Below are positions 12,601 to 34,279 of a stretch of DNA of 64,000 bases, piece after piece. The position numbers and the translations under genes were made by a program. Within the stretch, counting starts at the first letter, position 1. Every line of letters begins with the position of its first letter. Source of the DNA: Mytilus californianus (Eukaryota); assembly GCF_021869535.1 (NCBI RefSeq), contig NW_026262672.1, positions 1,612,001-1,676,000 of the forward strand, written 5' to 3'. The notes below the pieces were generated by a model. It was not told the DNA's origin, made no database searches, and saw only the letters and a program-made list of their open reading frames with translations.

Positions 12601-12962
12601 AAGAGAATCCTGAAATAGTTGTCACTTATTCCTTGGTTATAATGCAGCGGAAGCAAACCACCGTTCGATTTGAATGTTTTAATAATCGTGTAAATTGATC
12701 ATTCCACTATAGAGTTGTTCAGGGCTGAGTCGTCTACTGTCTTTTTATTATTTCATTGTCATTACAAAATTTATTGTATTCATTGTACTGATTGTTGGTT
12801 GCTTAACGTTTAAGAATGACTCAAAAGTTTAAAGCAATAATCTCATAAAGCTAAATACTGTCCACACTAGTCTGTCTTCACTCTTTTGTATTTTCCCCAT
12901 TAGTTTGAACATGCAGTAACGACACCTTACACTTAAGATTACAATTTAAGCTGAATCAGAGT

Positions 12963-13248
12963 AGTAGTAGTAGAATAGGGATAAGAAAACAGTAGAGCAG
13001 GTAGAGCAGCTTATGTAAATATTGTGCTAGTGATGGTGGAATGTTTGTGTCCACGTGTGATACTTTTGACCAAGGTAGAGCAACATTGGTTGGTAACCAG
13101 GTTATGTTTGTCGTCCATTTTGTTTCCACGTTGCAAGGTAGAGCAACATTGGTCGGTAACCAGGGGTATGTTTGTCGTCCATTTTTGTTTCCACGTTGCT
13201 GACTTTTTCAAGGTAGAGCAACATTGGTTGGTAACCAGGGTACGTTTG
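12963..13248 (+). repeat. Left terminal inverted repeat of the Polinton (286 bp matching; degenerate extension to ~13311)
   Basis: Reverse complement of 32724-33009; the mirrored ORF translations in the track are identical across the overlap. Contains three ~63-75-bp internal units starting at 13071, 13134 and 13209. Confidence 0.95.
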
Positions 13249-13611
13249 TCGTCCATTTTTGTTTCCACGTTGTAGAATTTTGGGTTGCCTTGCTTGTCTA
13301 AATTGTTATTTAAGTGAGCGGCATCCATTTTTTTTTTTACGTTACTATATTTATTTTTGACGATATATGTTGGTAATAATTTTAAAACGAAAATTCTGAG
13401 GTTACATTACCAGGTTTTGTTATCAACAAAAAAGGTGCAGATATATATCTTATTATTTAAGTATGGTTTGAGTAGATTCATAGAATTAAAGCAGCTTTAT
13501 GACATTGTTGAATTAAAGGTTGAAGACTGGAAGTACGATTTAATTATACAAATTGTAGAGACTTCAGGTGGTGGTGGTATGTAAGTAAATGTTAGTCTTT
13601 ACTGATTAATC

Positions 13612-13938
13612 ATGGATTTAGAAACAGACTCGGGATGTTACTTTTCAGACATCCTCCGTTTCAAACCAGCCCATCTGAATATGATGTATTTCACAAATAG
13701 AATGCAAACATATACAAATTGGCCGGAACAGATTAAACAAAAGCCAGAAGATCTAGCTCATAATGGTTTTTTTTACACCGATATAGGAGATAGAGTGACA
13801 TGTTTTTATTGTGACATTACTCTAAAAAAGTGGACTAAAGAAGACGATATCGAAACAGAACATATAAAATGGGATCCAAATTGTTTGTTTGCAAAGATGG
13901 TATCTAGTAAAACCTTGTCCAACATACTTATGAAATAA
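13612..13938 (+). CDS. Single-BIR-domain inhibitor-of-apoptosis-like protein (108 aa)
   Basis: BIR signature R..TY..WP...LA..GFFY...GDRVTCFYC-x16-H-x6-C (CFYC...EH...PNC). No RING domain. Confidence 0.92.
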   Translation: MDLETDSGCYFSDILRFKPAHLNMMYFTNRMQTYTNWPEQIKQKPEDLAHNGFFYTDIGDRVTCFYCDITLKKWTKEDDIETEHIKWDPNCLFAKMVSSKTLSNILMK

Positions 13939-14025
13939 GAATGTTACGTAATGACTGAGATACACTATAAGAAGATCCTCGAATTCCGTTCATTTACAGA
14001 TTGATTGTTGTAGAGAGAAGACACT

Positions 14026-14430
14026 ATGGATGCAACATTTGAAAAAGCCGAGAAACTTATGCATCACACACTTAAATATTTGTATGCTAGGATGGTCTTA
14101 GACTGTTTACCGGATATTGTGAAAGAACATTGTTATGGGTGTGAAGTAAACCACCCGAGTCAGATTCAACACACTTGTTTAATGTGGACAAAAATGGAAC
14201 ATTTAGAAACTTATTTCGATATTGCTTATAAACAGATAGCGGAGAAGGACATGGTTAGGAAGATGTCCAATCAAGTGAAGCTCATGGATGTACCAGATGA
14301 CTATAAAAATGACGTTTTATCTACATTAAAGGATTGGTGCATTCTACATAAACCAAGTACCAAAAATGTGTCACACTGGTGCAAACGATTGGTGTTGTTG
14401 GAAGAAAGATTCACAAACGAATTAAATTAA
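14026..14430 (+). CDS. Uncharacterised Polinton accessory protein with C-x2-C...H-x-C cluster (134 aa)
   Basis: Clean ATG-to-stop ORF inside the element with motif HCYGCEVNHPSQIQHTCL (possible metal site). An acceptor-like ttcatttacAG lies at 13999. Confidence 0.75.
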   Translation: MDATFEKAEKLMHHTLKYLYARMVLDCLPDIVKEHCYGCEVNHPSQIQHTCLMWTKMEHLETYFDIAYKQIAEKDMVRKMSNQVKLMDVPDDYKNDVLSTLKDWCILHKPSTKNVSHWCKRLVLLEERFTNELN

Positions 14431-14484
14431 TTTAAAACACACCGATCATTAACATTGGTTATCATTTGATGTGAAACACTCATC

Positions 14485-14802
14485 ATGAACAGACGTATTT
14501 TTGAAAACTCAACCTTCCTGAAAGAACTTTACTATGATAGACCCCTAAGAAGAAAAGAATTGATTGAGGAGAGTTCCGATGATCAAATTCGAACCATTTC
14601 ACACATTGCATATAAAATTTATCATGCAACACTTATGATTAGTATAGTACATAGACGAAAACTTCGAGAGTTTCGGAACACTATTAAGTTTTTAGCCAGT
14701 GGGAGAATTAGTGTAAGCAGGAAAAGACGAGTACTGTTAGTGTATCACAAATTAATACCACTCCTGATTAAGCCTCTGTTGCATTTACTAGACGAACAAT
14801 GA
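14485..14802 (+). CDS. Small basic helical Polinton protein (105 aa), probable paralog of 19659-19970
   Basis: ATG-to-stop ORF. Its pattern L..L...R.ELI...S..QI..I..I...I...KL...IK.LAS..S...KR..L resembles 19659-19970 by eye. Confidence 0.7.
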   Translation: MNRRIFENSTFLKELYYDRPLRRKELIEESSDDQIRTISHIAYKIYHATLMISIVHRRKLREFRNTIKFLASGRISVSRKRRVLLVYHKLIPLLIKPLLHLLDEQ

Positions 14803-15049
14803 GATGCTTGAACTGTTTCTAATGATATTTCAATAAAAGTTAGTTACTTGTATTTTGTTTTTTGTCTCTTTATTATATTTTCACAAAGTGCATATTGGTT
14901 AGGTATCTCAATTGAAGAAAGTGTCAGTAAAATTTAAATTCCTTCTCGCTTTCAAAACTTTACTTCAGTAGAGATACCAAACCAAGACTATCAGCCTTAA
15001 ATACAAAGGGAACAGGTCTTACCTTTCATAGAATGAAAAAAAATCCAAG

Positions 15050-16156
15050 ATGAACACACAAGATAGAATAAATGATTTAATATCAAACACATATAAAAAC
15101 ACACATGTAGGTCCCGAAAAAATATACAGAATATTAAAATCCAAAGGAATCACTAATGTTGGACGATCCAGGATAAAAAGACTATTACGAAGTCAAGACA
15201 GTTACACTTTAAGAAAGGAACTCCGTCATTCTTTTCGTCGTGCACGTGTAATTGTATCTGGAATTGATGATCAGTGGGACATGGACCTCGCTGATATGTC
15301 AAACATTGCAAGTGAAAACGGTCAGTTTCGATACCTATTAGTCGTCGTGGATATCTTTTCAAAGTATCTGTGGATTCAGGTTCTGAAAAATAAATCAGCA
15401 AAAGTTGTAGTCGAGGCAATGAAGAAAATTTTAGCTGGTAACAGAAAATGTAAAAAGATTCGAACTGATAAAGGAAAAGAATTTAACAACAACATAATGA
15501 AATCATATCTGAAAAATGAAGGTATACAATATTTCACCACACAGAATTCAGAAACAAAGGCTAACTACGCTGAAAGAGTTATCAAGACTGTGAAAAATAT
15601 GATGTATCGATACTTCACAGAGAGGAGAAATCATAGGTACTTGGATGTACTTCAAGATATTGTTAAAGTATACAATTCTACTCCACATAGAAGCTTGAAC
15701 AATATCCAACCAAAAGACGTCAGCAAAACAAACGAAGCAGATATATGGGCATATATGTATTTAAAACCAAAGAAAATAACATCAAAAAAGCCTCGATCAT
15801 ACCACTTTAAGGCTAATGACTTCGTTCGTATTTCTTACATTTCTATGCTATTTGACCGTTCATATGATGAACATTTCACAAGAGAAATTTTTAAAGTTAG
15901 CCAAAGATTTCGAATGCAGGCTATACCGGTTTATAGAATAAAGGAGTATGATGGAACTTCCATAAAAGGATTATTTTATGAATCAGAGATGGTTAAAGTG
16001 AACAAGGATGAAGATGTTATGTGGTATGTAGAAAAAAAAATTCGAAAACGTAAGAGAAATGGACGGGTTCAGTGGTTAGTTAAGTTTGAAGGGTGGCCAA
16101 ATAAATATAATCAGTGGTTGAATGAAGAGGATATCACAGATCCAAATGACTCCTGA
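15050..16156 (+). CDS. int: Retroviral-like DDE (rve) integrase with C-terminal chromodomain (368 aa)
   Basis: Catalytic D (WDMDLADM), D (IRTDKGKEF) and E (AERVIKTVK); chromodomain WYVEK...WLVKFEGWPNKYNQW. Consistent with the 6-bp TSD. Confidence 0.96.
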   Translation: MNTQDRINDLISNTYKNTHVGPEKIYRILKSKGITNVGRSRIKRLLRSQDSYTLRKELRHSFRRARVIVSGIDDQWDMDLADMSNIASENGQFRYLLVVVDIFSKYLWIQVLKNKSAKVVVEAMKKILAGNRKCKKIRTDKGKEFNNNIMKSYLKNEGIQYFTTQNSETKANYAERVIKTVKNMMYRYFTERRNHRYLDVLQDIVKVYNSTPHRSLNNIQPKDVSKTNEADIWAYMYLKPKKITSKKPRSYHFKANDFVRISYISMLFDRSYDEHFTREIFKVSQRFRMQAIPVYRIKEYDGTSIKGLFYESEMVKVNKDEDVMWYVEKKIRKRKRNGRVQWLVKFEGWPNKYNQWLNEEDITDPNDS

Positions 16157-16158
16157 AG

Positions 16159-16578
16159 ATGAGCATCTACATAACATTCAATAGTGAAAAATCTCTGAAC
16201 TATTTTCCAAACAACAAAGCATATACTTTTTCTTCTCAACTGAATTCACCTGTGTTTTTGAATGGAAATTGGAGAGTTGCCTTAGTTGAAGCAGACATTT
16301 CAAGTAGCATATCTAAATCAGAATCCATTTACCTGTATTCTAATATTTGTGGTGAATCTATTGTCGATGGAGAACAAAAGCCACTTCTTCGAAGGTTAAG
16401 TGCAGCCTCTATGGGAAACTGGTCAAACATTTTCGAAGTTCCGCATTATGTTCCTGTAAAAATAAATGACCTCTATAATATTGATATCTATATAAATGAT
16501 GGTGACAACAATCTAGCTTCATTTTTAGATATTCCTGCAACGGTAACACTACACTTCAAATCGTTTCCATTCTTTTAA
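16159..16578 (+). CDS. Minor capsid protein (penton, single jelly-roll), short 139-aa form
   Basis: Polinton penton-like motifs: S..YFP.N....F...L...V.L.G.W.VAL.E, IYLYSNI....IVDG...PLLRR, HYVPV, VTLHF. Confidence 0.85.
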   Translation: MSIYITFNSEKSLNYFPNNKAYTFSSQLNSPVFLNGNWRVALVEADISSSISKSESIYLYSNICGESIVDGEQKPLLRRLSAASMGNWSNIFEVPHYVPVKINDLYNIDIYINDGDNNLASFLDIPATVTLHFKSFPFF

Positions 16579-16580
16579 AA

Positions 16581-17060
16581 ATGAACAAGATGTATGTGCC
16601 AAATGTAGGAAGCTGGATTAATTATTATGAGAAGCTAGACAGAAAAGGTCATCACAATACTAACAAAGGTCAAAAACAAATCGGAGGTGGGTCTCTAACT
16701 GGAACCTCAAGGTCATCCATTACACCAATCGGCATACCAACCAAAACTCCTTCTGGTGAGAAAGTAAAAATTCAACTTGTCTCCCCCGTCCATCAAACGG
16801 ATGAAATGGCCAAGGACATGGTTGAAAGAGAGAAAAAGACATTAAAAAGAAAGCCATCTAGTTATGATGCCAATTCTTCCAAAAGACGTCGAACGAACGA
16901 GACCTCCAAAAAGCCCAGTAAAACCACCAAAAAGTTGACTAAGCACAAAAAGTCAAGAAAGACAACCAAAGCATCAAACAAGAAGAGACATACGAAGAAA
17001 AAAACCAACAAGAAAAAACTGCAAAGCTCTGTGAAAACCTTCAAAGACATATTCAAGTAA
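16581..17060 (+). CDS. Basic K/R-rich core/DNA-condensing protein (pVII-like), 159 aa
   Basis: Lies between penton and MCP, has a very basic C-terminal half, and contains QIGGG, matching the adenain consensus (M/I/L)xGG. Confidence 0.7.
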   Translation: MNKMYVPNVGSWINYYEKLDRKGHHNTNKGQKQIGGGSLTGTSRSSITPIGIPTKTPSGEKVKIQLVSPVHQTDEMAKDMVEREKKTLKRKPSSYDANSSKRRRTNETSKKPSKTTKKLTKHKKSRKTTKASNKKRHTKKKTNKKKLQSSVKTFKDIFK

Positions 17061-18383
17061 ATGGCTGCTTTATCGTTAGATGGGTTCCAAGAAGCTCAGC
17101 CAAGTGGTTTGGATCTGTTTTCATTACCACCAACACAGACAGCGATTGATTCAGTGTATTATGATGAGCATAGGTCAACAGCACAGCTAACTGGAACTGC
17201 GCCAGTAGAATTTAACATTGCAGCCCAAAATTCACTGGAGTATATAGATTTGAGAAAAACAAAATTATATGTAAAAGCGAGAATAAAACATATCAATGGA
17301 GACAGTCTAAAACCTACTGAGTATGTTGGTCCAGTTAACAATTTTCTACATTCTATGTTCTCACAGATTGATATAACATTACAAAATAAGTTGGTGACAT
17401 CAACTACCACACATTATCCATACAAGGCAATGATACAAACTCTTTTATCTTTTGGATCTGAAGCAAAAAAATCTCAGCTGACTAGCCAGTTATGGAAAAA
17501 AGATCAACCAGGACATTTTGATGATAGTGATGTAGAAAATGGTGGCAATTCTTCCTTATTCGATCGCGCACAGTATTTTACTCAAAGTCAAGTGTGTGAT
17601 TTAGAAGGTCCGTTATTTCATGATTTATGTAGTCTGGACAGATACATGCTGAATCAAGTAGCTATTAATGTTAAACTTTACCGTTCAAGACCTGAGTTTG
17701 CTTTGATGACAAGTGAAAAAGATCCAAATTTTCAAGTCATCATCGATGACATAGTGTTAAAAGTGTGCAAAATACGTTTAAACCCTGCTGTCATTATGGC
17801 ACATGCGCAGAAACTACAAACAACAAATGCTAGATATCCCTATACCAGAACAGAAGTGCGCCTTATTTCTATACCTGCTGGGAGTCTTAGTTTCAATTAC
17901 AATAATTTGTTCAACGGGCTCCGACCGACTCGTTGCGTTATAGCTTTTACAGAGTCCGCTAGTTCTAGTGGTTCATATACGTTATATCCATTCAACTTTC
18001 AACATTTCAACCTTAGTCAAATAACGCTCAAACTGAACCAAGTTCCTGTAGGTGGGAATATTATGCAGTTAAACTATGGAGCCACGAGTCGAACTATACT
18101 ACCTGCTTTTAATAGTATGTTTGAAGTGACTAACAAGTGGATGAGAGACAGTGGAAATCAGTTGAGTAGAAATGATATAGTAGGAGGAAATGCTTTATAT
18201 TGTTTTGAAATAGAACCAAATTTCAGCGACGAGGGACAGTACTTAAACTTAGTGAAACAAGGAACTTGTTCTCTAGAAGTCAATTTCAATGCACCACTGC
18301 CGAAAGCGTCCACGTGTGTTGTGTATGCAGAGTTTCCAGCTTATTTTGAAATAAATTTAGAAAGAAACATCATTTTAGAATGA
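17061..18383 (+). CDS. Major capsid protein (double jelly-roll, Polinton PY/hexon-like), 440 aa
   Basis: Polinton MCP motifs LDLFSLPPTQTAI, YIDLRKTKLYVK, PVNNFLHSMFSQIDI, YPYKAMIQTLL, LEGPLFHDL, ARYPY, YPFNFQHF. Confidence 0.93.
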   Translation: MAALSLDGFQEAQPSGLDLFSLPPTQTAIDSVYYDEHRSTAQLTGTAPVEFNIAAQNSLEYIDLRKTKLYVKARIKHINGDSLKPTEYVGPVNNFLHSMFSQIDITLQNKLVTSTTTHYPYKAMIQTLLSFGSEAKKSQLTSQLWKKDQPGHFDDSDVENGGNSSLFDRAQYFTQSQVCDLEGPLFHDLCSLDRYMLNQVAINVKLYRSRPEFALMTSEKDPNFQVIIDDIVLKVCKIRLNPAVIMAHAQKLQTTNARYPYTRTEVRLISIPAGSLSFNYNNLFNGLRPTRCVIAFTESASSSGSYTLYPFNFQHFNLSQITLKLNQVPVGGNIMQLNYGATSRTILPAFNSMFEVTNKWMRDSGNQLSRNDIVGGNALYCFEIEPNFSDEGQYLNLVKQGTCSLEVNFNAPLPKASTCVVYAEFPAYFEINLERNIILE

Positions 18384-18892
18384 ATACTTACCAGCTCAAG
18401 TGTGCCATTGTTTCAGACGTTGACTTACAACGATCTGTTCTTGGTGTATTCTCATCTGATGAACTGTCTCAAGTTCACCTACTACCAGGAATGGGTGTGA
18501 TAGCCAATACAGATGTCGCAGGCTTACCAGGAAGACATTGGGTAGCATTTTTCTGTAATAGAAAGAACAGTCTTGAAGTATTTGACTCTTTTGGGTATTC
18601 AGAAAAAGAACTCACTGTTTATTTTAACAAATTCATGCGGAATTATGCATACATACAATCAAACGAGAAAAGACTACAAGGTGATGACACAGTTGTGTGT
18701 GGACAATATTGTTTGTTTTATTTAATGTGTCGTGTGAGAGGATTTACCATGCAACAGATAACAGATGTGTTTTCAGAAGACTATCAATTGAATGACAATT
18801 TTGTGTACAGTTTTATAGACAATCGGTTTCATTGCTGTGTGAACAATGTGTGTAATGTTGTGAATCAATCTTGTATCAAAATAAAAAATTAA
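18380..18892 (+). CDS. Adenain-like cysteine protease (170 aa)
   Basis: Catalytic H (NTD..GLPGRHW), D (FDSFG) and Q/C (LQ.....CGQYC). The start overlaps the MCP stop (ATGA). Confidence 0.93.
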   Translation: MNTYQLKCAIVSDVDLQRSVLGVFSSDELSQVHLLPGMGVIANTDVAGLPGRHWVAFFCNRKNSLEVFDSFGYSEKELTVYFNKFMRNYAYIQSNEKRLQGDDTVVCGQYCLFYLMCRVRGFTMQQITDVFSEDYQLNDNFVYSFIDNRFHCCVNNVCNVVNQSCIKIKN

Positions 18893-18990
18893 TGCTTATA
18901 TGTTATTGTTGGTGTTGTTGTTGCCTCTCTTTTTTTTTACATATAAAACAGTTTGTCTCTCAGCTATTTTTATTATTTCACTTGAACAGT

Positions 18991-19662
18991 ATGGTTGACT
19001 GGTGGGAGAAGGAAAGTTTGCTCAAATTTCAGAGTCCAACATCAATATTCATTGTTGGTCCGTCAAATTCAGGAAAAACAATGTATACCAAAAACCTTCT
19101 TGAAAATGCAGATGGTATGTTTCAAGTACCACCGTCGAAGATATTTTACTGTTACAGTATTTGGCAGTCAGTTTTCGATGAAATGAAATCAGCAATACCA
19201 AACATTGAATTTTTTCAAGGTTTCCCCCATATGGATGTTTTATCAGAATGGGGGACTTTACAAGGGCATAAGGTTCTTGTTTTAGATGACCTGATGGTGG
19301 AATCTGCAGATAGTAAAGAACTGGTTCATCTCTTAACTGTAGGAATTCACCATAATTCAATCACTTTGATTCAGATTCTACATAACTTGTATTGTAAAGG
19401 TAAAGCCATGAGAACAGCCTCCCTCAATTGCCATTACTTTGTTTTATTTCGGAATTATAGAGATCAGTTACAAATTCAAACTCTTGGTAGGCAGATTTTT
19501 CCCGGACAGTCTAAATACTTTTTAGATGCATACAAGAAGGCGACATCTGTAGCCTATCGCCCATTAATTATTGATTTAAATCCACATACAGACAAAACAT
19601 ATCAGTTGACAACAGATCGTGGAGTTGGACAGACACCTATCGTATATCACTCTGCAGAATGA
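18991..19662 (+). CDS. A32/FtsK-like genome-packaging ATPase (223 aa from M at 18991)
   Basis: Walker A GPSNSGKT, Walker B VLVLDDLM, and downstream HHNSIT / RTASLNCHY / RDQLQI motifs. The ORF-track start at 18871 is non-ATG and low-complexity. Confidence 0.94.
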   Translation: MVDWWEKESLLKFQSPTSIFIVGPSNSGKTMYTKNLLENADGMFQVPPSKIFYCYSIWQSVFDEMKSAIPNIEFFQGFPHMDVLSEWGTLQGHKVLVLDDLMVESADSKELVHLLTVGIHHNSITLIQILHNLYCKGKAMRTASLNCHYFVLFRNYRDQLQIQTLGRQIFPGQSKYFLDAYKKATSVAYRPLIIDLNPHTDKTYQLTTDRGVGQTPIVYHSAE

Positions 19663-19970
19663 AGGACTATTTAGCACATTTTCTTTTGAATGCTACTGCA
19701 AAACAAATTTCTCAAGCGATTAAATCACTAAGCAAGGAACAGTTGGAATGGTTGGTTGAAATAATATACAATGTGATGCAAGGAGTTTGCCCCATTTCAA
19801 GTGTTGATAAAACTTTGCTGACCAAGAAAAAGAAGCTCATACGTAAAATTGTTTCCAAAGGAGCAGCATATAAACAGAGAAAATTATATTTATTAAAAAT
19901 AAGAGGACTGCTTCCTAGTTTCCTAAAGACATATCTCCGTTATGTCTCGCGAACTGATTCTGATTCCTAA
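19659..19970 (+). CDS. Small basic helical Polinton protein (103 aa)
   Basis: ATG overlaps the ATPase stop. Motif QL..LVEI.YN...G..P....K..L.K.K..IRK resembles a small ORF commonly found next to the ATPase in Polintons. Confidence 0.8.
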   Translation: MKDYLAHFLLNATAKQISQAIKSLSKEQLEWLVEIIYNVMQGVCPISSVDKTLLTKKKKLIRKIVSKGAAYKQRKLYLLKIRGLLPSFLKTYLRYVSRTDSDS

Positions 19971-20250
19971 ACTGAGGTATGAACAATTAAAAAATCCAGA
20001 GACATTGCCGGAAAAAAGAGAAAATCGAGATCAAGATCAGCCGAAAGATAAACCAGAAAATATCGATGACTTGGAAAGTAAACAGTTAGTAGAGGACTTT
20101 CAACCTGAAAAATTGAAGAAGTCAAACAAAAAGAGAAAAATTACACAACACGAGGAAAGTAAACCATATATCGCTATGTCCCTTAAAACAATGCTGCAAG
20201 AGAAAAGTAAACAAAAACCAAAGATGAAATGGTTATCGTTTCGAATTTAG
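19942..20250 (+). CDS. Charged hypothetical Polinton protein (102 aa)
   Basis: Overlaps the previous ORF. Starts M.RELILIP..RYEQL and ends KW..F, a pattern I recall from Polinton ORFs at this position. Confidence 0.7.
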   Translation: MSRELILIPKLRYEQLKNPETLPEKRENRDQDQPKDKPENIDDLESKQLVEDFQPEKLKKSNKKRKITQHEESKPYIAMSLKTMLQEKSKQKPKMKWLSFRI

Positions 20251-20281
20251 ATGTCATGTGACATCGTCACGTGTATTTAAA
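20250..20281 (+). promoter_or_regulatory. Candidate polB promoter: palindrome GATGTCATGTGACATC, E-box GTCACGTG, TATA-like TATTTAAA
   Basis: Motifs read directly at 20250-20265, 20266-20273 and 20274-20281, about 47 nt upstream of the ATG at 20328. Confidence 0.5.
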
Positions 20282-20327
20282 TTGAGGAAATTAGGTAGCT
20301 GTTATCATTTTGTGTAAAGTGAAAAGC

Positions 20328-23300
20328 ATGGCTCACCGCGGTGTTCATACCAATGATTTACATTTTAACGAATCTGATGATGGTATGTTGGTGAAGGCAG
20401 CCATAGAGGTTGAGAATAAACTCAAACGTAAGAAATCATGTGCTGAAAATGTTGATGTCAAAAGACCAAAGTTAAATTGTGATATTTGTGATAAAACTTT
20501 CAAATACAACAGAAATTTGAACAGACATATGAATTCACATTTTAACAGAATTCAGTGTTTAGCGTGTGGGAAATCGTTTACGCAAAAACATAATTTAGTC
20601 AAACATGGTAATAAGTGTTCTGGACAGCGCACAATAAACAAACGAGATAAACAATTATCTAAGCAACTTACATGTAGACACTGTGATGTCTCCTTTGATG
20701 ATGTTGATTCTTTATTCACCCATGTTGCCAACCATCATCCGTTAAACCAAACAGGAGGTAGAATGCCTAAAACGGAGGAGCCAGTTGTCAGTCAGATAAA
20801 ACGTAAACGGTTTCGTTTTAAGAAAAGCGCCATTAACAAATCAGTGAATCGTGTAGACCTTATGCCTATTGGTGATGAAAAATATGATTTATTACGTTTT
20901 TTGGCTAATACGAAAACTGATGTTGAAGAAATAATAGTATCTCAGCAAAAGAAACAAAAAAATGTCAAATGGTATGTAAATGCTCGAGTGAAGATGGTTC
21001 GAGATATTGATGATGGACAACAAGAAAAGGCACACCCACATTTCCGCAGCAAAAGTTACATATCTCTTCAGAATGAGAGTAATGATCATAATTTAAATGA
21101 AGCTTTCCAAACGATTAACAGAGTAATGGAAGAATTTATCAACAAGGGATCTAACTGGATATTGAATAAAGTTATATGCCTCGAAGTACATACTTTACCA
21201 TACTCACCCATAGCTGGTTCAAATTATATGGAATTACCATACAAAATTAAGGCCACTGGTGGAATTATCAACATTAGAAATGATGACCAAAAGTGTTTCC
21301 TATGGTCTGTACTGGCAGCCCTACATCCGATGGAATATAATCCATATCGGAAGTCACATTATACGGCACACGAAAATGAATTGAACATGAACGATATTGA
21401 ATATCCTGTGTCTTTAACAAAAATGGAGAAATTTGAGAAACAAAACAATATTTCAATCAATGTTTTTGGCTTTGAAAACGAAGAAGTGTTCCCACTATAT
21501 TTAACAAAGTTAGAAAATGTAGATAGGGAGATCGATTTATTGTATTTATCACAGAACGGGGAAACTCACTACTGTTGGATCAAAAATTTAGATCGTTTCC
21601 TTGGATCAATGACTAAATTTCACACCAAACGGTTTTACTGTAGAAGATGTCTTCACGGATTCATAAGACAAGACTTATTAAATGAACACAGACTATATTG
21701 TAATAAGTTTGATTTTCAAAAAGTGACTTATCCAAAAGAAGGAGAAGCCATTTTAGAATTTAGAGACTTTCATAAACAAATGCGTGTTCCTTTTGTCATC
21801 TATGCAGACTTTGAATGCTTTGCAAAAAAGATGGATACTTGTCAACCAGACCCAAATCAATCGTCAACAACACATAAAACAAAATTTGTTCCATGTGGTT
21901 ACTCCTACGTTGTGGTCAGTTCAAATGATAGATATTCCAAGCCAGCCGTTGTATACAGAGGAGAGAACGCAGTCGAACACTTTTTTGAAAATATATTTAC
22001 AGAGGAAGAATACATAGATGATATATTGAGGAACATTTATGAGGAGTTAATTATGAGTGTGGAAACCGAAACGCAATTTCAAAATGCTACAAACTGTTAT
22101 GTATGCAATCAACCATTTTCAGGCAAAATAATCAAAGTTCGTGACCACGACCATTTAGGTATAAACGAAGATAACGAATCACCAAAGTATAGCAATTACA
22201 GAGGGGCAGCCTGTCAGAGATGCAACTTGATGTTGAAAAATCCAAATTTCATTCCGGTCTATTTTCATAATTTGCGGAACTTTGATGCACACCTTTTGCT
22301 GTCGGAAGCTGGTAAATTCAAGGACAAAAAATTAACATGTATACCAAACAATATGGAGAAATATGTGTCCTTTTCTGTTGGACAACTGAGGTTTTTAGAC
22401 ACATACCAGTGCATGAGTAGCTCTTTGGAGACGTTAATTGCTAATTTAGCGGCAGACGGTTTTAAAAATTTCAAACAATTTCGAAAAGCTTTCCCCAATG
22501 ACGAACACGCTAAACTTTTGCTACAGAAAAACGAATACTGTTATGATTATGTGAATTGTTCTGAAAGATTTGAAGAGACAGCTCTCCCTTCAAAAGCAGC
22601 TTTTTATAATTCCTTAACCAAAGAAGCTATTTCTGATGAAAAGTATGAACACGCTCAAAAGGTCTGGAACACGTTCAATATGAAAACCTTAGGGGATTTT
22701 CACAATTTGTATGTATTAACAGATACGCTACTCTTAGCAGATGTTTTCGAACGATTCCGTGACATGACTCTTAAATATTACAAGTTGGATGCTAGTCACT
22801 TTTTCACGAGTCCAGGTTTAGCATGGCAAGCAGCATTGAAAATGAGCGGTGTCTGCCTGGATTTAATAACTGATCCCCTCATGTACAACATGATAGAGCT
22901 TGGAACACGAGGTGGGGTCAGTATGGTTACCAAAAAATACAGTCGAGCTAATCATCAATATGTTGACGACTTTAATGAATCAGATGTGAAAAAACACATC
23001 ATGTATCTAGATGCTAACAATTTGTACGGTTGGGCAATGTCTCAACCATTGCCTTCTGGTTTTTTCCATTTTTTAAATGAAGATGAAATTAGTCATTTTG
23101 AGTTACAGAAAGTCGAGTCAGACGCAAAAGAAGGCTACATTTTAGAAGTAGACATAGAATATCCTGAACATCTCCACAACAAACATAACGATTATCCTCT
23201 GGCACCCGAACATCTACTCATTGAAGACAAAGATCTATCGAAATACAGTACTGATTTATGGGGAAAGTTAAATTCTGTGAAGAATGCAAATGGTGTGGAA

Positions 23301-25235: not shown

Positions 25236-25369
25236 TGATAGTATTTATTAAATATTTAAAAAAAAAACTAACCGTGTCAGTCTGTTTGCATATATGTCCG
25301 TAATGAAATTTATAAATGTTATTCCTATAAACACCACATTGAATGAAAGTCACACCACATTGAGCATCA

Positions 25370-27141
25370 TCACATCGATTGGAAAAAGGCTCCCATTTCC
25401 TCCTCAGAGAGATCATATAAATTGTTTTGCACAGGGGAAATCTGTTCATATTTTGTATTCTTCCCAGACCACTGTGGGTTTAATTCTTCACGTATCGGTC
25501 TCTTTGCGGCCATCCTCACCGGAATCATATTTCCTTTGCTCCACATCGGGTCTGTTATAGTTTGAAGTGGAGTGGTAGTTGACGTCTCGTTTTCATATAT
25601 TATTGTTAGAGGTGCCTGCAATAATAAAAATGAAATATTTAAATAAATAAACCAGAGAGAAATGAAATACTTTCAGTGTTGCTTATCTTTTTTTTTTTAA
25701 GGACAAAAGGTTGTTTGCAAGTTCAATTCTATACTTAAAAAACAAGTATTGCTTTGTTCGCATTTAAGTGTATCAAGTTAAGAATACATGGTGATTCTTG
25801 AGAAGAACAAAAAAAAACCCACCCTCTATTGCAAGACTTACCTATTGTATGTATTGTTAACTTGTTCTCACCCTGAGCATGTATGAAATATTTGCCACTG
25901 GACGTTAACCAACCAACAATCAATCATGATTCTTGAACATATTTAAACTCTACATTAATAAATGTATACTTACGGAAGGTGTTGGTGGTGGTTGCTTAAC
26001 GTCCAGTGGCAAATATTTCATACATGTTCAGGGTGAGAACAAGTTCAGAATACATGGTGATTCTTGAGAAGAAGAAAAAAAAACCCACCCTCTATTGCAA
26101 GACTTACCTATTGTATGTATTGTTAACTTGTTCTCACCCTGAACATGTATGAAATATTTGCCACTGGACGTTAAGCAACCAACAATCAATCATGATTCTT
26201 GAACATATTTAAACTCTACATTAATAAATGTATACTTACGGAAGGTGTTGGTGGTGGTGGCGGTGCATAAACCGGCGCTACATTTTCTTTAAGTACAACC
26301 TGCTCCTGTGGCTGGGAGAGCGGCTAAAACATGAAAAATAAAATAAAACTCAAACTCAAATGTTATGAAGAAAGTTTTATACTTGCGAGAGGTGTTGGTG
26401 GTGTGCATATTGTTTTTCGTTCATTATTTTGTACATAAATTAGGTTGTTATCTTTTTTCTCCCCTCGGATGTTTGTTTTACATTCATCATTTTGAAGCTA
26501 TTTATAGCTGACTATGAGGTATGGGTTTTGCTTATTGTTGATGGTCGCAAGGTGACCAAAAGTTGACAATTTCTGTATCATTTGGTCTCTTGTGAAGAGT
26601 TATCTTATTAACAATCATACCACATCTTCGTTTTATGTTATTCAATTGTTGCATTAAATTAGTTAAAATAAAAGGCAAATGTGAACACCGATATCTCCCC
26701 TAACAAAAGCGAGGTAGATAGATAAACAGAAAGATAAACGGTAATAGACAATACTTAAAACCTTCCTGTTGTTTACGGTAAGCGCATACAAACAGAGAAA
26801 AAAAAACACCTCAAAGGGTATAATCTTTAATTTTCCTCGGTTTTTAAAGAAAACTCCTACATGTGAACCTCGTGTAAAAACAAAAAGAAAGAAAATAGTC
26901 TTACCTGTGGAAAGTATGCAGTTAGGGACTCTAGGTGCCCCCTCAGTGTAAACAGATCATCCAGCTCGTCTAGCCCTAAATTCAGCTTCATTGATCCATT
27001 TGACGCAGCCAAGTCTAAATAAAAGAGTCCTCTAGCGGACTTTTTATAGGTAAGCACTTTCCCTCTCCCGAATTGAGTTTTGTATTCCGTTCTACCAGTG
27101 GAAGTAATAATTTGACTAAATTGAACATTTTCGGCTGCCAT
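25370..27141 (-). CDS. Three-exon Polinton accessory gene (27141-26905, 26323-26240, 25615-25370), ~188 aa; N-terminal beta-rich domain possibly PC4/ssDNA-binding-like, Pro-rich linker
   Basis: Donors CAG|GTAAGA (26904) and TCC|GTAAGT (26239); acceptors gttttAG (26324) and ttattgcAG (25616). All junctions are phase 0 and the ORF stays open. The domain call is only a by-eye resemblance. Confidence 0.72.
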
Positions 27142-27786: not shown

Positions 27787-29026
27787 ATGGTGCCCGCTAA
27801 GTGTTTGTTGTTGTTGAGTATTGTTGTATGTAATGGCCAAGTGCATGACCTTAATATAAGGAAATGCAGAAGTGTGGTTGATGAAAGCTACGAGGTAGTG
27901 GAGCTGCAGTGCCTGTATGAGGGGGAAGGCAGCTACATTTTCAATGGGCCGACTTCAGTGAAGAAGATTACCCTGGACAGACTGGCGGGTTCCAGTACAT
28001 TAATGACTTTTGGCCAGCAGTTAGAAAAAGTAGCCATCAAAACATGCACCATAGACAATTGTTGCCAGGCCATTTCAGCAACCCCTAGCACGGAAGTGCA
28101 GATTGCGGATAAAGTTTGTGTAAGATGCTATTACGTAACTTGTTTTCAACATCCGCCATTTTTATTGTTTACAAAAAATTGACACCTACTTTATGAAAGA
28201 CAAATTCCCTTTATTTTCTTTTGAAAGTATAACAATATAAGAAAAGAAATATTTGTTAGCATAATTTTAATTGTATTTCTATTAAACAGATTTGTGTTAA
28301 AAACTATAAATATTAAATTTGATAACTGTCTATAAATATTATTGTTTTTGTTTACAGTCACTGGAAGACCTTGTTTCCTCTACTGGTGTGGTTGAGACCT
28401 CTCCTCATACGGAGGGGGGTTCTCCTGACTCCTCAACAGAATGGTCTCAAAGCGCTCCAACATCAGCAGTGTACGAGCACAGCCAAATGTCCAGCACTCT
28501 CCCTGACCATCAACAGGTGGGTTTTCACCTATAGGGCAAAGAGAATCCCTACTTAACATAACCATTGCATTGTGGTGATGTATTCTAAAAAACATGAAAA
28601 CACTGCTGTTAAAATTAACGTAAACAATTTTGAAAGTACTTATTTTCACTATTTTAGACATTTATACTTATAAATTTCTCATGCTTTAAATTCAGCTAAA
28701 GCTAAATGTGTATTGATTGTAACATGTAGTAGGGTGTGGATTAGGTTATGTTATTTTATTTGTGTACATGTAGTTTATTATTTAATTTTTTATTTTAGAC
28801 TACTACAGAAAATGAGACGAACTCAACAACACCGTGGATAGTAGCAACCGTCACCACTTTAACAGGTAGCTTAAAAGTTTATATAATTTTTCTTGGAGTA
28901 ATTTTGTTTCTTTTAATTGTCTTAATTTTGGTGTTCTTATTAAAAAAGTATTACTATCAATCAGACTACATTCCAGTTAAGAACGATGATTCTTTATATG
29001 TTGAAATGGATACCATAACTAGTTAA
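27787..29026 (+). CDS. Spliced type I membrane glycoprotein, isoform A (exons 27787-28119, 28358-28516, 28799-29026; 239 aa)
   Basis: Signal peptide MVPAKCLLLLSIVVCNG, 6-Cys ectodomain, Ser/Thr-rich stalk with NET/NST sequons, TM VYIIFLGVILFLLIVLILVFLL followed by KK, tail YYYQSDYIPVKNDDSLYVEMDTITS. Phase-0 GT-AG junctions at 28120/28357 and 28517/28798. Confidence 0.82.
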
Positions 29027-29045
29027 ATTATTTCTTTTCTTGTAG

Positions 29046-29170
29046 TACTTCTGGTGATAGCTCTCATTTGTTTGGGGAAGAAATGTTTGAGGAATAGTAG
29101 GGGAGGGTTAATTGAGCATTGTCTTCCTCTACAGGAGATTCCTACTGCCCCTAAATATAAGGACTATTAG
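29046..29170 (+). CDS. Alternative terminal exon B of the membrane glycoprotein gene (VLLVIALICLGKKCLRNSRGGLIEHCLPLQEIPTAPKYKDY*)
   Basis: Acceptor tttcttttcttgtAG (29045); phase 1 from the donor at 28865/28866; completes the TM WIVATVTTLT-VLLVIALICL-GKK. Confidence 0.68.
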
Positions 29171-29432: not shown

Positions 29433-29545
29433 AGCAATTTCAAGTTCTAATCTTTACCATGATTAGTGTATTAGTGGTTTTAAACCGTATCCATAGACTT
29501 TTGTTAAATGCAATACCAGCTATTAGAAACTTCATCCCCCTGTAA
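29433..29545 (+). CDS. Alternative terminal exon D ((EQFQ)VLIFTMISVLVVLNRIHRLLLNAIPAIRNFIPL*)
   Basis: Acceptors at 29432 (ttttcttcttgtAG) and 29444, both giving the same phase-1 frame; hydrophobic run followed by NRIHR. Confidence 0.55.
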
Positions 29546-29778
29546 GACAGCTTATTAACCCTCCTCAACATCAACCACCACAACAAGCAGCAGTCCAACC
29601 TATACCACCTGCAGTACACCAGGAAGTCATCCTACCCTTACCAGCACCTCCACTCATTTTAAGAAGAAGCACCAGACAGTCCATACCACCCAACAGGCTT
29701 AATTTGTGATTAATTTGTGTATTATGTTTTTTTTTTGTTTGTTTTCAAACCAAACTTCTATATAATTTGTGTAATTAA

Positions 29779-30043
29779 GATGTACCTAACACTACAGGGG
29801 GATAACTCTGTAAAATCAGCTAAATGTTAATTATGATATGTATTTAAGGGCATTGTAATAAGCTTCTCAATGGTTGAAATTAGTGTTTGTTAAACTGTTA
29901 TATACCCAGTGTAATTTTTATAAAGAAATGGTTGCTTCAAATATTTTGAAATTTTTATCAAAGGTTCAAAATAAATACTTTGTTAAAATTTTATGAAAAC
30001 TCAACAAACCAAATTTATTTTAGGTAAGGTGTTGGATACCACC
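29779..30043. mobile_element. Non-autonomous DNA transposon (TTAA TSD, imperfect TIR; Kolobok/piggyBac-like) inside the Polinton
   Basis: TTAA at 29775-29778 and 30044-30047; ends GATGTACCTAACAC versus reverse complement GGTGGTATCCAACAC. Confidence 0.55.
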
Positions 30044-30146
30044 TTAATTATAAAACTATGAATAATACCATTGTAAGACTAGCTTTATGAATCATATTGC
30101 TTCATTAAGTAACTTCATATACAAAAATGTTTAAAGTATTTCTTAC

Positions 30147-30508
30147 CTGTCCTTTAAGATATCTAATCCTATCTGCAGCATGTCTCGGCTTTGCACACTA
30201 TTAGCTGTATTGCACTGCTGCATCAGTTCTCCCAAAAATGTCTCGCTCATTCGTATGAGACATCCTATCCTAGTTTCCCTGCTTTCATGCAACAAAGCAT
30301 GATATAGTGCAGAAACATTAAATTGCATGCTACTGAATGTGTTGATGGGTTGCTGACAATACCAATTCTTTATTTCTTCAAACAACTCAGGTTGTATTGA
30401 ACACTTATAACATGGGAAAAAATGACTCCCCACTACTGGTATATGTTGAGATACAAAATTAGTCAATTGAGAAAGAAAGTTACTGATTGAAGCACGATGA
30501 TCCATCAT
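30147..30508 (-). CDS. Probable exon of a further Polinton accessory gene (Cys/His-containing, unknown function)
   Basis: 121-codon ATG ORF ending at a strong donor GACAG|GTAAGA (30146), with an acceptor ctatttAG just upstream of the ATG. The downstream exon was not identified. Confidence 0.5.
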
Positions 30509-31479
30509 AAAGTTTTCTAAATAGAATGAAAGTATAACATTTTTCCTAAATATTAAAGGACTTATTCTTCTCTCTTGGTTATGATAAGATTCATTAAATA
30601 AAGTTGGGTTGATAAATTTAATTCATTTAGACTTAACTGAGATGCCATTTTAGGATTAATTTATATATGACTAAGCATCCATTGTGATAACAAAGGAGAC
30701 ATTAGCATTTCTATGCTATATTATCTTAAGAAGTTTATTGAGGGGGGCTTTTTTTTTATTATTGAAGGTTTTAACAAAGGAGAGTGATAATTTTCCATAC
30801 ATAAGAAAGACTCAACATCCTGTGTTTGACATGATTATAAATTATGGATAAATTGATACATTTTTCGCTTAATTTCTCTCTTTAAATTTATTTTTATGAT
30901 GAAAATAGGGAATAAGTCAGATTTTTGAAATGATGTTACTTTAAAGGGTGTTGTTTATATTATACATATCTAGAAGTTTTGTATATATGTTTACACAAGT
31001 CTGTTTTGTTATGTTAAGAAGAAGTTTAACTCAAATTAGAAATAATATATGTTTATCTGTCTGATGTTCTCCATTAACAGTTAATTAGTTTTGAAACTTG
31101 ATTGCAATTAAGACAATTTCCTATACTCTACATTTAAAGATTGTTATACATGTTTATCTATCAACAGTTATTTAGCTTGAGGCTTGATTGTAATTAAAAA
31201 TATTTAGTAATTATACAGTATGATAACTTCTAAAGGAAGAAAATCAAAATATTTATGAAGCTTTACATCAGAGGAATTATCTGATATGATCTATCAGATT
31301 AAAAGATAACGTTTATTTGGTCTTAAAAATAATGTAAAAATATCAAAAATGCTATAGAGGTTGATGGGGAACATTAGACAGACCTTAGTAGTATATGAAA
31401 TGTTTATACTGTAATATAAAACATGTATCTTGTGTACAATTTGGAGTTTAGTATGGCGTTCATTATCACTGAACTAGTA

Positions 31480-31633
31480 TATATATTTGTTTAGGGGCCA
31501 GCTGAAGGACGCCTCCGGGTGCGGGAATTTCTCGCTGCATTGAAGACCTGTTGGTGACCTTCTGCTGTTGTCTGTTCTATGGTCGGGTTGTTGTCTCTTT
31601 GACACATTCCCCATTTCCATTCTCAATTTTATA
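31480..31633 (+). repeat. ~150-bp abundant mussel-type dispersed repeat inserted in the Polinton
   Basis: Sequence TTTAGGGGCCAGCTGAAGGACGCCTCCGGGTGCGGGAATTTCTCG...CATTCTCAATTTTA, recognised from memory as a common Mytilus repeat; flanked by TA runs. Confidence 0.65.
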
Positions 31634-32723
31634 TAGTCTTTGTTTTTCTTGTTATTAAGCAATATAGTTGTGATAATTTATTAAATGTTAATTGTTTTAA
31701 AGTTGGTGCTAAATAATTGTGATAATCATTAAAGTTCATATTTCAAATCATGATAGTTGTACTCCTGATAACATGCTGTTATATATATTTAATATATTCA
31801 TTTACAATGATAGTTTAAGAGAGGAAAATATACTCTATAAAGACAAGTTTTATAAAAAAAAAAAGTAGTGCTTATACTATAGTTTTGGTGCTAACTGTTT
31901 TATGGTGCTATGCATTCCGCCAGATTCCCCTATAAAGACAAGTTTTATAAAGAGAGTAGTACACTACATTTTTACTAAAGTTTTGGTGCTGTGTATTCTT
32001 ACATTGAAAAAATAAGCATTTACGGTTGTTAATCAAACCATGATACCTGTATATATTTTATCTATATTTTGTTACTTTAGTGCAACATTCCATCTTTTAA
32101 TTTTTGCTTCATGCGTGTTTTCATTTTAAACGTGGAAACCATGTGGGTTATATTTTTATTTTATAACATAATTTATCTTCTATCACATTCCATCAAGTTA
32201 CTTTTTATATTGTAGTCATTTTTAAAAACTAGAATCATCTAGTTAATCATATTACTATATGTAATCTTTTACATGTCTCTTTTTAGAAATCCATTCTTGT
32301 TAAAAAAAAAAAACATTTGTTTTAGAAGCTTTATTAAATTTTATATATATTAGAAACAAACTCAGGGTTGTATGCTCAAATATCGGTTTTAATACAAGTT
32401 TTTATATACTATACATAGTATTGTAATATTTATTTTTTATGCTAAAAATACTCAATCAGTTTTTGCAATAATGGTGATCTACACAAAATGTGATGTATAC
32501 ATAATGTATATAAGTTTTTGATAATAAAAATAATTTATTTTCTTCAATCTTTGTTTTATCTCTTCTCAAGTTTCTGTAGTTTGTGTGTTGTGGAAAGAAA
32601 ATGAATGCCACCCCTTACCAACAACCATCTCTCTCACATATTGACTAACTCCAAGCAAATAACAATTTAGACAAGCAAAAAACAACACAAAATTCTACAA
32701 CGTGGACAACATGGACGTCATCT

Positions 32724-33009
32724 CAAACGTACCCTGGTTACCAACCAATGTTGCTCTACCTTGAAAAAGTCAGCAACGTGGAAACAAAAATGGACGACAA
32801 ACATACCCCTGGTTACCGACCAATGTTGCTCTACCTTGCAACGTGGAAACAAAATGGACGACAAACATAACCTGGTTACCAACCAATGTTGCTCTACCTT
32901 GGTCAAAAGTATCACACGTGGACACAAACATTCCACCATCACTAGCACAATATTTACATAAGCTGCTCTACCTGCTCTACTGTTTTCTTATCCCTATTCT
33001 ACTACTACT
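32724..33009 (-). repeat. Right terminal inverted repeat of the Polinton (degenerate extension to ~32657)
   Basis: Mirror of 12963-13248; ends ...TTCTACTACTACT followed by TSD CAGAGT. Confidence 0.95.
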
Positions 33010-34279
33010 CAGAGTTGCTGAGAGTTACTATATATTTGTTAGTATCATCAACTTACTATAAGCCTCAAGTCATATATAAGCTATTATGGATCTTAGCTAC
33101 TCATGTTTTTGACTTTTGTCAGAATGATTGAATGATTGACGGTTGCTTAACGTCCAGTGTTATTTCAATTTTTGTTCAATCACTTTAATAATTTCAAATG
33201 CAAATTTTCATTTTTCTCAATCAAATATATAGTTTTCAAGTTTAAATCAACAGATGTTAGTCAGTGAACTGAATATACGATAATGATTATGTATTACAGT
33301 GATGCTAATCAGGTAAAATCATATGTATTGGTTATTTAAATATAAGTATGTAAAACTATTGTCAGTTTAAACTCATTTGATTTTTTCCCTGGTCAAGTGA
33401 GGCTGTATAAATACAGGGGTCCCCAAGTATGCGACCTGGGCTACTTAGGTATCAGGAAATTGAATAAAAATATTTGTTATCGTTAAAACTAAACAAAAAA
33501 AGTCCAGTGTCAAATATTTCATGCATATTCAGGGCGAAAACAAATTAACAATAAATACAATAGGTCGGTTCTGTAATAGAGGCGTCCGGGATTAAGTTCG
33601 GAGAAGACTTTTTGTCAGATATTCGGAATCCTAGAGTATTCTCTATGAAGTAACAATATCAATTTTGACCGCTAACCTCTAATTTTCTTTTCATTATTTT
33701 CATTATAAGTGTATAAACTAAGCTCTGTCGTTATCTAATTCTGAATTAATTATTTCGAATCAAGAACCAAAATAAATCAGCAACTCTCTTGATGACTACT
33801 CGGCAGTCTTGCGAAGCATTTGTTACTTTTACTGAAAGAAAGTATTTTGTTTTTATTGTGATGGATTACGTTTTAATTTTTAATTTATTATCGCCAAACT
33901 ATGGAGTTATGGCAAATGTGTAATAGGACTAAATTCACATTTACTTCAGTCTACTAGCAACTACAAGAATATTTGCTTGAAAACTAGCAACGACAAAATC
34001 TTCAGTACTAGCAATGACAAAATTATTTACTTAAGTACTAACAACGACAAACTATTTTTATTTACCTATTTGACATTTATGAAATTTTCATCTACTAGTT
34101 TGTATTGTTTTATATGCTTGTCTAGGAGAATATTGTTCTACACCTATGATTTTATATTGGTTTGATTCTGTTGCTTATAGTAGTGATACATCGTAATTAT
34201 ATAACTGTGGTATGTTCTGCGCTTGCCACTAGGACGTGTGTTGTCGTCTGGTTCCTGATCAGCTTTGAGTGTATTTTTT

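Follow-up and report, generated by a model that had tools for sequence, protein, structure and literature searches.

The window, by which we mean the whole 64-kb stretch of Mytilus californianus DNA analysed here, carries a 20,047-bp Polinton at positions 12963-33009. We consider it probable that this element is a recent, likely unfixed and largely silent integrated copy, that purifying selection has maintained the predicted capsid genes of its lineage, that its DNA polymerase (PolB) would need the host spliceosome, and that the lineage likely makes a predicted surface protein with four alternative tails. The main interest lies in the lineage's apparent adoption of host splicing: PolB introns restricted to one clade, a gene that would swap the tails of a membrane protein, and a spliced antisense RNA. 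An earlier note made from the sequence of the window (the original prediction) had recognized an element of the Polinton/adintovirus type; it did not cover the history of the introns, the gene for a membrane protein with several tails, the antisense RNA or the internal host repeats.

The element is bounded by the following features.

12957-12962, plus strand: left target-site duplication (TSD), CAGAGT, present as one copy at the empty homologous site
12963-13248, plus strand: left terminal inverted repeat (TIR), 286 bp, with an (AGT)3 end and an internal tandem repeat of a 75-bp unit
32724-33009, minus strand: right TIR, 286 bp, the complement of the left TIR
33010-33015, plus strand: right TSD, CAGAGT, pairing with the left TSD

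The TIRs, which the original prediction had described as matching, are 100% complementary: 0 of 286 positions diverge in the alignment, the exact match stops at base 286, and both TIRs start with (AGT)3. When the left flank was searched for in the same genome, one full-length homolog was found, on C93. At this locus, the left flank joins the right flank directly with a single CAGAGT (flank identity 97.3% and 94.3%), and for this reason the perfect 6-bp TSD noted earlier is regarded as real. The insertion is thus of the integrase type with a 6-bp duplication. The C93 locus was rejected as a second copy of the same insertion, since the element is absent there; it is most simply read as the other haplotype, but may instead be a segmental duplicate. 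The existence of this homologous empty site in the same assembly supports the view that the insertion is not fixed.

The core genes all lie on one strand. Six of them are listed here.

15050-16156, plus strand: rve integrase, 368 aa, with a chromo-like C-terminal domain (PF00665, 42.5 bits; cut-off 32.6)
16159-16578, plus strand: predicted penton (minor capsid) protein, 139 aa, named from its position
16581-17060, plus strand: putative core protein, basic, 159 aa, named from composition and position
17061-18383, plus strand: predicted major capsid protein (MCP), 440 aa, named from homologs and gene order
18380-18892, plus strand: adenain-type maturation protease, 170 aa (PF00770, Peptidase_C5, 24 bits; cut-off 21.3)
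18892-19662, plus strand: A32-type packaging ATPase (PF04665, Pox_A32, 23.8 bits; cut-off 22.8), whose true start is probably a later ATG

All seven core genes, PolB included, are open with their catalytic motifs present. The D, D and E motifs of the integrase, the His, Asp and Cys motifs of the protease, and the Walker A and B motifs of the ATPase were found by pattern. Together with the TIRs and the 6-bp TSD, the rve integrase, the A32 ATPase and the adenain protease support the Polinton/adintovirus identity. The MCP is predicted from gene order and from the names of its homologs (n = 363), some of which are called 'Capsid protein' or 'F54H12.2-like'. The penton is predicted from its position, which fits the order of penton, one gene and MCP described in the available part of PMC4028283. 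The original claim of open genes stands as far as the frames are concerned, and an inhibitor-of-apoptosis-like (IAP-like) open reading frame (ORF) is to be added to it; the MCP, penton and core labels found no backing in the profile searches given below.

We examined related copies in the same genome. A TIR probe gave 38 matches, and 14 stretches of close families were compared. A matching 6-bp TSD of its own was found in 11 of the 14 other copies (6/7 and 5/7); in the exceptions, one end is not visible, one TSD is missing and one is mismatched. The sister copies were rejected as haplotype duplicates, because their flanks and TSDs differ. Those of subfamily A are 97-99.7% identical to the window copy, and those of subfamily B are about 95% identical in the core. 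All seven core genes are open in 3 of 13 other copies, while the remaining 10 have breaks or deletions. The ratio of replacement to silent substitution rates (dN/dS) was obtained from 8 A and 3 B copies, with the partial copies C132b, C126 and C132c excluded, as partial coverage inflated their pairwise values. The differences shared between A and B comprise 254 silent and 150 replacement changes (dN/dS 0.15), whereas the singleton (tip) changes comprise 103 silent changes, 391 replacements and 39 stops (dN/dS 1.05; Fisher p = 1e-42 against the shared changes). By gene, dN/dS is 0.027 for the penton, 0.095 for the MCP, 0.096 for the protease, 0.14 for PolB exon 1, 0.23 for the ATPase and 0.25 for the integrase; two small ORFs give 0.75-0.85 on few changes. 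These counts point to a lineage that replicates under purifying selection on the shared branches and to copies that decay neutrally after insertion; the value near 1 that would speak for decay of the lineage was not seen on the shared branches.

Among five aligned copies, the window copy itself is set apart by 24 private substitutions (19,690 columns) and 6 private indels. In the scored ORFs, its private changes are 6 amino-acid replacements, 2 of them in the MCP, and 0 silent changes. It differs by 0.27% from its nearest sister, as against 2.7% between the two flanking haplotypes; the insertion is about 10 times younger than the split of these haplotypes, and it is not pristine. The earlier description 'young or still-active' accordingly divides: youth is supported by the identical TIRs and the small distance to the sister, while continued activity is not, given a nearly silent raw RNA run and the private replacements. 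The word 'intact' likewise applies to the core genes and not to the whole copy, in which a private indel near 29535 cuts one membrane-protein tail (tail D) and a 201-bp repeat has inserted privately.

Some further observations concern these copies. Between A and B, the uncorrected silent divergence reaches 0.45-0.57 in m1, membrane exon 1 and m2 (accessory genes described below) but is 0.06-0.14 in the core genes and about 0.1 in tails A-C; this mosaic suggests recombination near the PolB end and inside the tail cassette. Relatives in M. edulis stand nearer to subfamily A than does the resident subfamily B, and runs of organism label B contain 65-74% of the sampled words; cross-species transfer between mussels is a lead here. 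Among the copies at L035-L038 (G000:C89:9.17-9.21 Mb) and L030-L031 (G000:C132:78.44 Mb), one has its left 3.3 kb, TIR included, tandemly duplicated and also contains a 16-kb insertion, and another is rearranged into a near-palindrome of two right arms.

The structure of PolB is as follows.

20328-23545, plus strand: pPolB exon 1, with C2H2 fingers, a putative terminal protein (TP) and putative vOTU, exonuclease motifs, motif A and the first half of motif B
23546-23922, plus strand: intron 1, 377 bp, phase 2, inside motif B, with a 217-bp host repeat at 23551-23767
23923-24218, plus strand: pPolB exon 2
24219-24370, plus strand: intron 2, 152 bp, phase 1, splitting the DTDS catalytic motif C
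24371-24532, plus strand: pPolB exon 3
24533-24894, plus strand: intron 3, 362 bp, phase 1, older than the other two and containing a 31-bp minisatellite (24585-24848)
24895-25235, plus strand: pPolB exon 4, to the stop

The four exons give 1338 codons in total with one terminal stop, and the introns are all GT-AG, in phases 2/1/1. The exonuclease, A, B, C and vOTU motifs were recovered by pattern (in exon 1, the Cys/His motifs of vOTU and the exonuclease motifs, with one exo III pattern unmatched), and the TP is only putative; the TP-vOTU layout was taken from the part of bioRxiv 10.1101/2024.03.18.585575 that was available. No Pfam polymerase match, including PF03175, was obtained when the exons were scanned singly, and a weak endonuclease VII insert in exon 1 (PF02945, E = 0.002) lies below the cut-off. 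Since introns 1 and 2 cut motif B and DTDS, an unspliced message would give no polymerase.

The introns were scored at 31 loci: the window, 11 TIR/PolB loci, and 19 loci hand-picked across identity classes from at least 150 PolB loci. In intronless relatives, the frame continues across each of the three junctions, and the gap holds exactly one codon. Intron 3 occurs in a 19-locus clade (support 99), at every one of its 17 scorable loci, and at none of the 12 loci outside it. These 12 outgroup loci have none of the three introns (two carry small frameshifts and one junction is unscorable). Within the clade, intron 2 is present in 12 of 18 loci, and intron 1 occurs at the window's site in 9, is shifted by 8 nt in 2 and is absent from 8. 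Among the loci scored, the introns in polymerase motifs B and C are confined to one clade. The PolB tree, built from about 430 query-anchored residues, was rooted at its midpoint, and support at one inner node is 62; the tree does not settle the order of gain after intron 3, and recombination could mimic loss.

At L045-L046 (G000:C154:19.60 Mb) and L066, intron 1 lies 8 nt downstream of the window's position, in the same motif, through independent gain or intron sliding. At L032-L034 (G000:C88:110.39 Mb) and L062, which are 84-85% identical in exon 2 and nested among carriers, intron 1 is precisely absent, through loss or recombination. Across the genome, PolB has at least 150 matches (471 candidates) and the MCP at least 99. 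At many of the distant PolB loci, the frame stays open for about 1400 codons, indicating that several young intronless families coexist.

These introns set the element apart from the systems to which it is otherwise similar. With Polintons/Mavericks (Polintoviricetes, Amphintovirales, Eupolintoviridae) it has in common the TIRs, the TSD, the integrase, the ATPase, the protease, and a predicted pPolB, MCP and penton. The intact Mavericks of vertebrates (Barreat and Katzourakis 2021, PMC8097293) are alike in the purifying selection on morphogenesis genes and in that most copies are decayed; as far as the available text of that paper goes, they were defined by intronless ORFs and no introns were observed. 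In contrast, the mussel element has three PolB introns, two of them in catalytic motifs, and at least two spliced accessory genes, and its three GT-AG introns place it outside a definition by intronless core ORFs. Beta-type adintoviruses (Starrett et al., bioRxiv 10.1101/697771, in the part available) are alike in having OTU-type PolB motifs without a PF03175 match and IAP homologs; GasderminX, PLA2X and cupiennin did not turn up in the mussel element, although no search was aimed at them. The stems 'splic' and 'mollus' have 0 occurrences in the accessible text of that preprint. A parallel in splicing is offered by the introner-bearing polinton-like proviruses of dinoflagellates (PMC11957031), which also carry spliceosomal introns in full-length proviruses with morphogenesis genes. 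According to the available part of that report, their introns are mostly introner copies gained after integration, whereas the three mussel positions have been inherited by families whose PolB identity falls to about 54%, with intron sequences of unrelated length. Kapitonov and Jurka 2006, Repbase entries and bioRxiv supplements may already annotate Polinton introns. A young intact bivalve Polinton is ordinary in itself, since 107,631 viral regions, 58.5% of them Orthopolintovirales, are counted in bivalve genomes in the accessible part of bioRxiv 10.1101/2025.04.19.649669; related literature, likewise seen in part, includes bioRxiv 10.1101/2023.08.22.554363 and PMC10294476. In the literature covered, with Repbase, subscription papers and bioRxiv supplements outside its scope, no paper describing either spliced tails or an antisense RNA for Polintons was found.

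Splicing also appears on the opposite strand. Four sequencing runs were placed on positions 13300-24580, with the right arm and the termini outside: a raw RNA run (about 6% of it read), two contig runs, X15 and X17, guessed to be RNA, and a DNA run, X2. The two relevant features are these.

15168-20672, minus strand: spliced antisense RNA, observed in contigs from close relatives of the element, with exons from at least 20672, 18552-18391, 16452-16333, and 15382 to 15168 or below
25370-27141, minus strand: m1, an accessory gene of three exons convergent with PolB (exon 1, 27141-26905; exon 2, about 26324-26239, Pro-rich; exon 3, about 25617-25370)

The joints 15382/16333, 16452/18391 and 18552/20672, with CT..AC ends, were found in both presumed-RNA runs and not in the DNA run. 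Because CT..AC joints correspond to minus-strand GT-AG introns, the RNA is antisense to PolB, the protease, the penton and the integrase. Depth rises toward the m1 side, as would fit read-through from m1, and the antisense RNA likely starts in this way. A coding role for its exons was rejected, as no frame is open across them. Tentatively, the RNA may damp the virion genes; a spliced minus-strand RNA across structural genes, seen when sense RNA is scarce, presumably parallels the HBZ-type antisense transcription of HTLV-1 proviruses, from which the mussel case differs in having no open frame and in belonging to a DNA virus. We see an even chance, on the other hand, that the antisense RNA is noise, that is, read-through spliced at cryptic sites in AT-rich coding DNA. 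The closed frames are in keeping with this, as are the joint depth of only 5-8 and the absence from the raw RNA run. All six splice sites are canonical, and subfamilies A and B retain them, with the exceptions of one donor in a decayed copy and one unscorable site, which argues against noise; however, the 75% family keeps only 4 of the 6, a 56% family about 3, and the 45% family none. Against a background of 29-61% codon identity with the 75% family, this retention does not clearly exceed what coding constraint would give. The other point against noise is that three identical joints were found in two studies with different organism labels.

m1 itself is under constraint in exon 1 (dN/dS 0.10), and its M. 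trossulus isoforms X1 and X2 differ by exon 2. A PC4-like identity for m1 was dropped, as Pfam gives no support. Polinton accessory genes (P0010, P0001, P0003/P0005, P0007/P0008) are annotated as mussel genes, and an M. coruscus homolog of m1 is named 'INSR'.

The second spliced accessory gene lies in the right arm and encodes a predicted membrane protein.

27787-28865, plus strand: shared exons of the membrane gene (exon 1 dN/dS 0.10; family of 101 clusters)
27787-28119, plus strand: signal peptide and Cys-rich ectodomain
28358-28516, plus strand: Ser/Thr stalk
28799-28865, plus strand: juxtamembrane exon, with a phase-1 donor at 28865
28866-29026, plus strand: tail A, by donor read-through, with a hydrophobic segment and a Tyr-bearing tail; also open in the 75%-identity family
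29046-29170, plus strand: tail B, a phase-1 exon, 40 aa, with a hydrophobic segment and Cys/Lys; used in XP_052097338.1 and XP_071150089.1
29277-29398, plus strand: tail C, a phase-1 exon, 39 aa, with a hydrophobic segment and a basic stop-transfer
29433-29710, plus strand: tail D, a phase-1 exon, Pro/Gln-rich; used in XP_071150090.1

The acceptors of tails B, C and D are at 29046, 29277 and 29433. A hydrophobic run follows the acceptor in 3 of 5 cases in the cassette, as compared with 1 of 276 in the flanks. Tail D is 36 aa here because of the private indel near 29535, and is 91 aa in the sister copies. The product in its tail B form matches, at 100% identity, a protein that RefSeq assigns to Mytilus californianus, which supports a bivalve host, and the M. 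edulis RefSeq isoforms X1 and X2 differ in using tail B and tail D, respectively. It is thus likely, judging from these gene structures, that alternative splicing equips a predicted surface protein with any of four tails, and likely that the tails set its sorting or signalling.

A different view is that the gene is a captured host gene whose extra tails are decayed exon duplicates, with only one form made. In its favour, no sign of selection is seen in tails A and B when close copies are compared, and 7 of the 34 genome matches to the ectodomain are not within 25 kb of an entry in the partial Polinton list. We nevertheless regard it as improbable. All four tails are open in two families whose ectodomains are only 31-40% identical, and a third, the 56%-identity family, has open tails resembling B and C; the RefSeq isoforms use B and D; the other 27 of the 34 matches do lie within 25 kb of a listed Polinton match; a Tegillarca homolog is two locus numbers away from an MCP homolog, on a contig of equal size; and one gene model fuses it with the PolB end. 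A profile search gave 101 clusters, and 8 of the 10 looked up carry names, from Mytilus and Tegillarca. Over 13 regions, the profile is strong in five intron-bearing regions and one rearranged copy and weak in one intronless region. P0001 and P0003 have no Pfam match at E < 0.1, and the Atlas matches for m1 and the ectodomain all score below 0.9.

The tail D homologs P0004, P0144, P0199 and P0237 have a short Arg-rich C-terminal motif, found in 5 of 17 long family members, which we take to be reminiscent of the nucleosome-binding arginine anchors of viral proteins. The region as a whole presumably resembles adenovirus E3, a dispensable-looking accessory region at the end of the genome with alternative splicing, type I membrane proteins and Tyr-based tail motifs. 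Unlike E3, it has one ectodomain with swapped tails in place of separate genes, and there is no sequence similarity, so that the likeness is an analogy only.

Host repeats inside the element bear on how its copies arise.

23551-23767: 217-bp host repeat in PolB intron 1, present in 9 of 9 other A copies
25774-26258, no strand: 266-bp duplication with pieces of an approximately 420-bp host repeat, subfamily A only, in 8 of 9 other A copies
29725-29858, no strand: 134-bp segment, in part host repeat, subfamily A only, in 8 of 9 other A copies
31429-31629, no strand: 201-bp interspersed repeat, at this position in the window copy only

The first three segments are found in 0 of 4 B-type or more distant copies, and the A exceptions lie in one rearranged copy. 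The intron 1 repeat reaches about 10^4-fold the element's summed contig depth in the DNA run, and the other repeat segments match dispersed genomic sites; for 29725-29858, 30 of the 40 matches listed are partial ones, at 82-95%, outside the subfamily-A copies. The own-genome search with 31429-31629 returned no match, not even itself, and is uninformative on copy number. The lineage thus acquired host repeats in its non-coding DNA, and later copies inherited them. Their being copied onward favours the formation of new copies from previously integrated ones, while insertion of repeats into free viral DNA is possible.

This result is one point for regarding the family as an intracellular self-synthesizing transposon, whose capsid module packages inside the cell or hitch-hikes and which accumulates introns and repeats as a genome resident. 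The copying of intron-borne host repeats to 8-9 further sites fits genome-resident templates, and intron gain is typical of resident genes. Repeats can, however, jump into free viral DNA as well. The penton, MCP and protease have dN/dS values of 0.03-0.10, among the lowest in the element; the IAP and the predicted surface protein are retained; and both the nearness of the M. edulis relatives to subfamily A and the A/B mosaic, which implies exchange between lineages, fit poorly with a strictly resident element. Although no virions of animal Mavericks are reported in the available part of PMC8097293, we give the transposon account little credence.

Several results nevertheless count against the reading adopted here. 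As for the RNA, the raw RNA run has no antisense joints and no capsid-gene reads; no plus-strand PolB splice joint is among the joints listed for the three RNA or presumed-RNA runs; the presumed-RNA contigs keep the intron 1 sequence; and the X15 and X17 contigs, which diverge by as much as about 4% from the window, come from relatives and not provably from this copy. As for the tails, A and C are used by no gene model among those examined, and the RefSeq isoforms are themselves predicted models; only tail D was seen in a 57% relative; and between subfamilies A and B the pN/pS of tails A and B is 0.4-0.8 and 0.75-1.3 on 4-12 changes, with no clear purifying signal. As for the virion, the 440-aa MCP and 139-aa penton ORFs have no meaningful Pfam, NCBIfam, PHROG or PDB match (nothing above noise in NCBIfam and PHROGs, and nothing meaningful for the MCP against PDB sequences, alone or as a 57-sequence profile), and the core-protein label likewise has no meaningful profile match; a viral-contig scan gave no relative of the element; and purifying selection on capsid genes is a sign of use by the lineage, not proof of particles leaving the cell.

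That this very copy is active now and makes virions, as the original prediction had suggested in naming it a candidate for particle production, is very unlikely: its seven open core genes with their catalytic motifs, its identical TIRs and the patchy low-depth X17 contigs over parts of the core and MCP region are outweighed by a raw RNA run with zero depth in 27 of 30 bins (one of the 3 others being a host repeat), the lack of any plus-strand PolB joint among those listed, the lack of any listed pile-up of molecule ends over 13300-24580 (the termini being outside this stretch), the 6 private replacements with 0 silent changes, the truncated tail D, the private repeat insertion, and the viral-contig scan.

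Under the reading of a silent, recently integrated copy from a lineage in use, a copy would be excised or copied in the nucleus, replication would be initiated at the TIRs by the protein-primed PolB, and the genome would be packaged by the MCP, penton, ATPase and protease; re-integration into the germ line and then decay would follow. The IAP and the membrane protein might act on the host cell in the manner of adenovirus E3 products, a suggestion to which we give somewhat less than an even chance. A wider proposal is that bivalve Polintons of the intron-bearing clade are regulated temperate animal DNA viruses, in which antisense RNA from the accessory arm would repress the polymerase and virion genes, the four-tail glycoprotein and the IAP would manage the host cell, and germ-line copies with their repeats would seed new ones, also between mussel species; as a whole, this is speculative and rather unlikely.

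The remaining features of the element are as follows.

13011-13328 and 13033-13275: two TIR ORFs
13612-13938, plus strand: single-BIR inhibitor-of-apoptosis-like ORF, 108 aa (PF00653, 83.7 bits, E = 1.4e-23), absent from the earlier note and retained in relatives at 55-78% identity
14026-14430, plus strand: conserved ORF, 134 aa, no family match, dN/dS 0.22
14485-14802, plus strand: conserved basic ORF, 105 aa, no family match, dN/dS 0.85 on 12 changes
19659-20250, plus strand: two small conserved ORFs, 103 aa and 102 aa
30143-30508, minus strand: m2, accessory ORF or exon, 121 aa, no family match, dN/dS 0.15

An 88-aa ORF at 25294-25560 on the plus strand is probably not a gene, as it overlaps m1 exon 3 on the opposite strand. 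No tRNA genes were found in the window. The young interspersed repeat of about 420 bp, whose copies are 91-98% alike and occur in both orientations, fills the flanks, and pieces of it lie inside an m1 intron. It is found at 127-523, 2413-2758, 3680-4101, 8007-8327 and 9259-9681 on the left, and at 38505-38901, 39785-40038, 40876-41300, 48808-49229, 56656-57080 and 58186-58507 on the right. A 620-bp inverted repeat, 43444-44063 and 44416-45035 (92% complementary, 352-bp spacer), is possibly a foldback-type element.

These findings bear on whether animal Polintons are real viruses and on what silences their integrated copies. Surveys that require intronless ORFs (PMC8097293) or ignore introns (bioRxiv 10.1101/2025.04.19.649669) would score such elements as broken, and Polinton accessory genes stand in RefSeq as uncharacterized mussel genes. 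An abundant host offers several handles on the system: the insertion site is dimorphic, some variants are specific to single copies, there is an antisense transcript to trace, and the predicted surface protein could be detected with antibodies. Finally, a single genome holds polymerases graded from intronless to one-to-three-intron forms, and virus-like lineages in which the gain and loss of introns can be studied in this way are rare.

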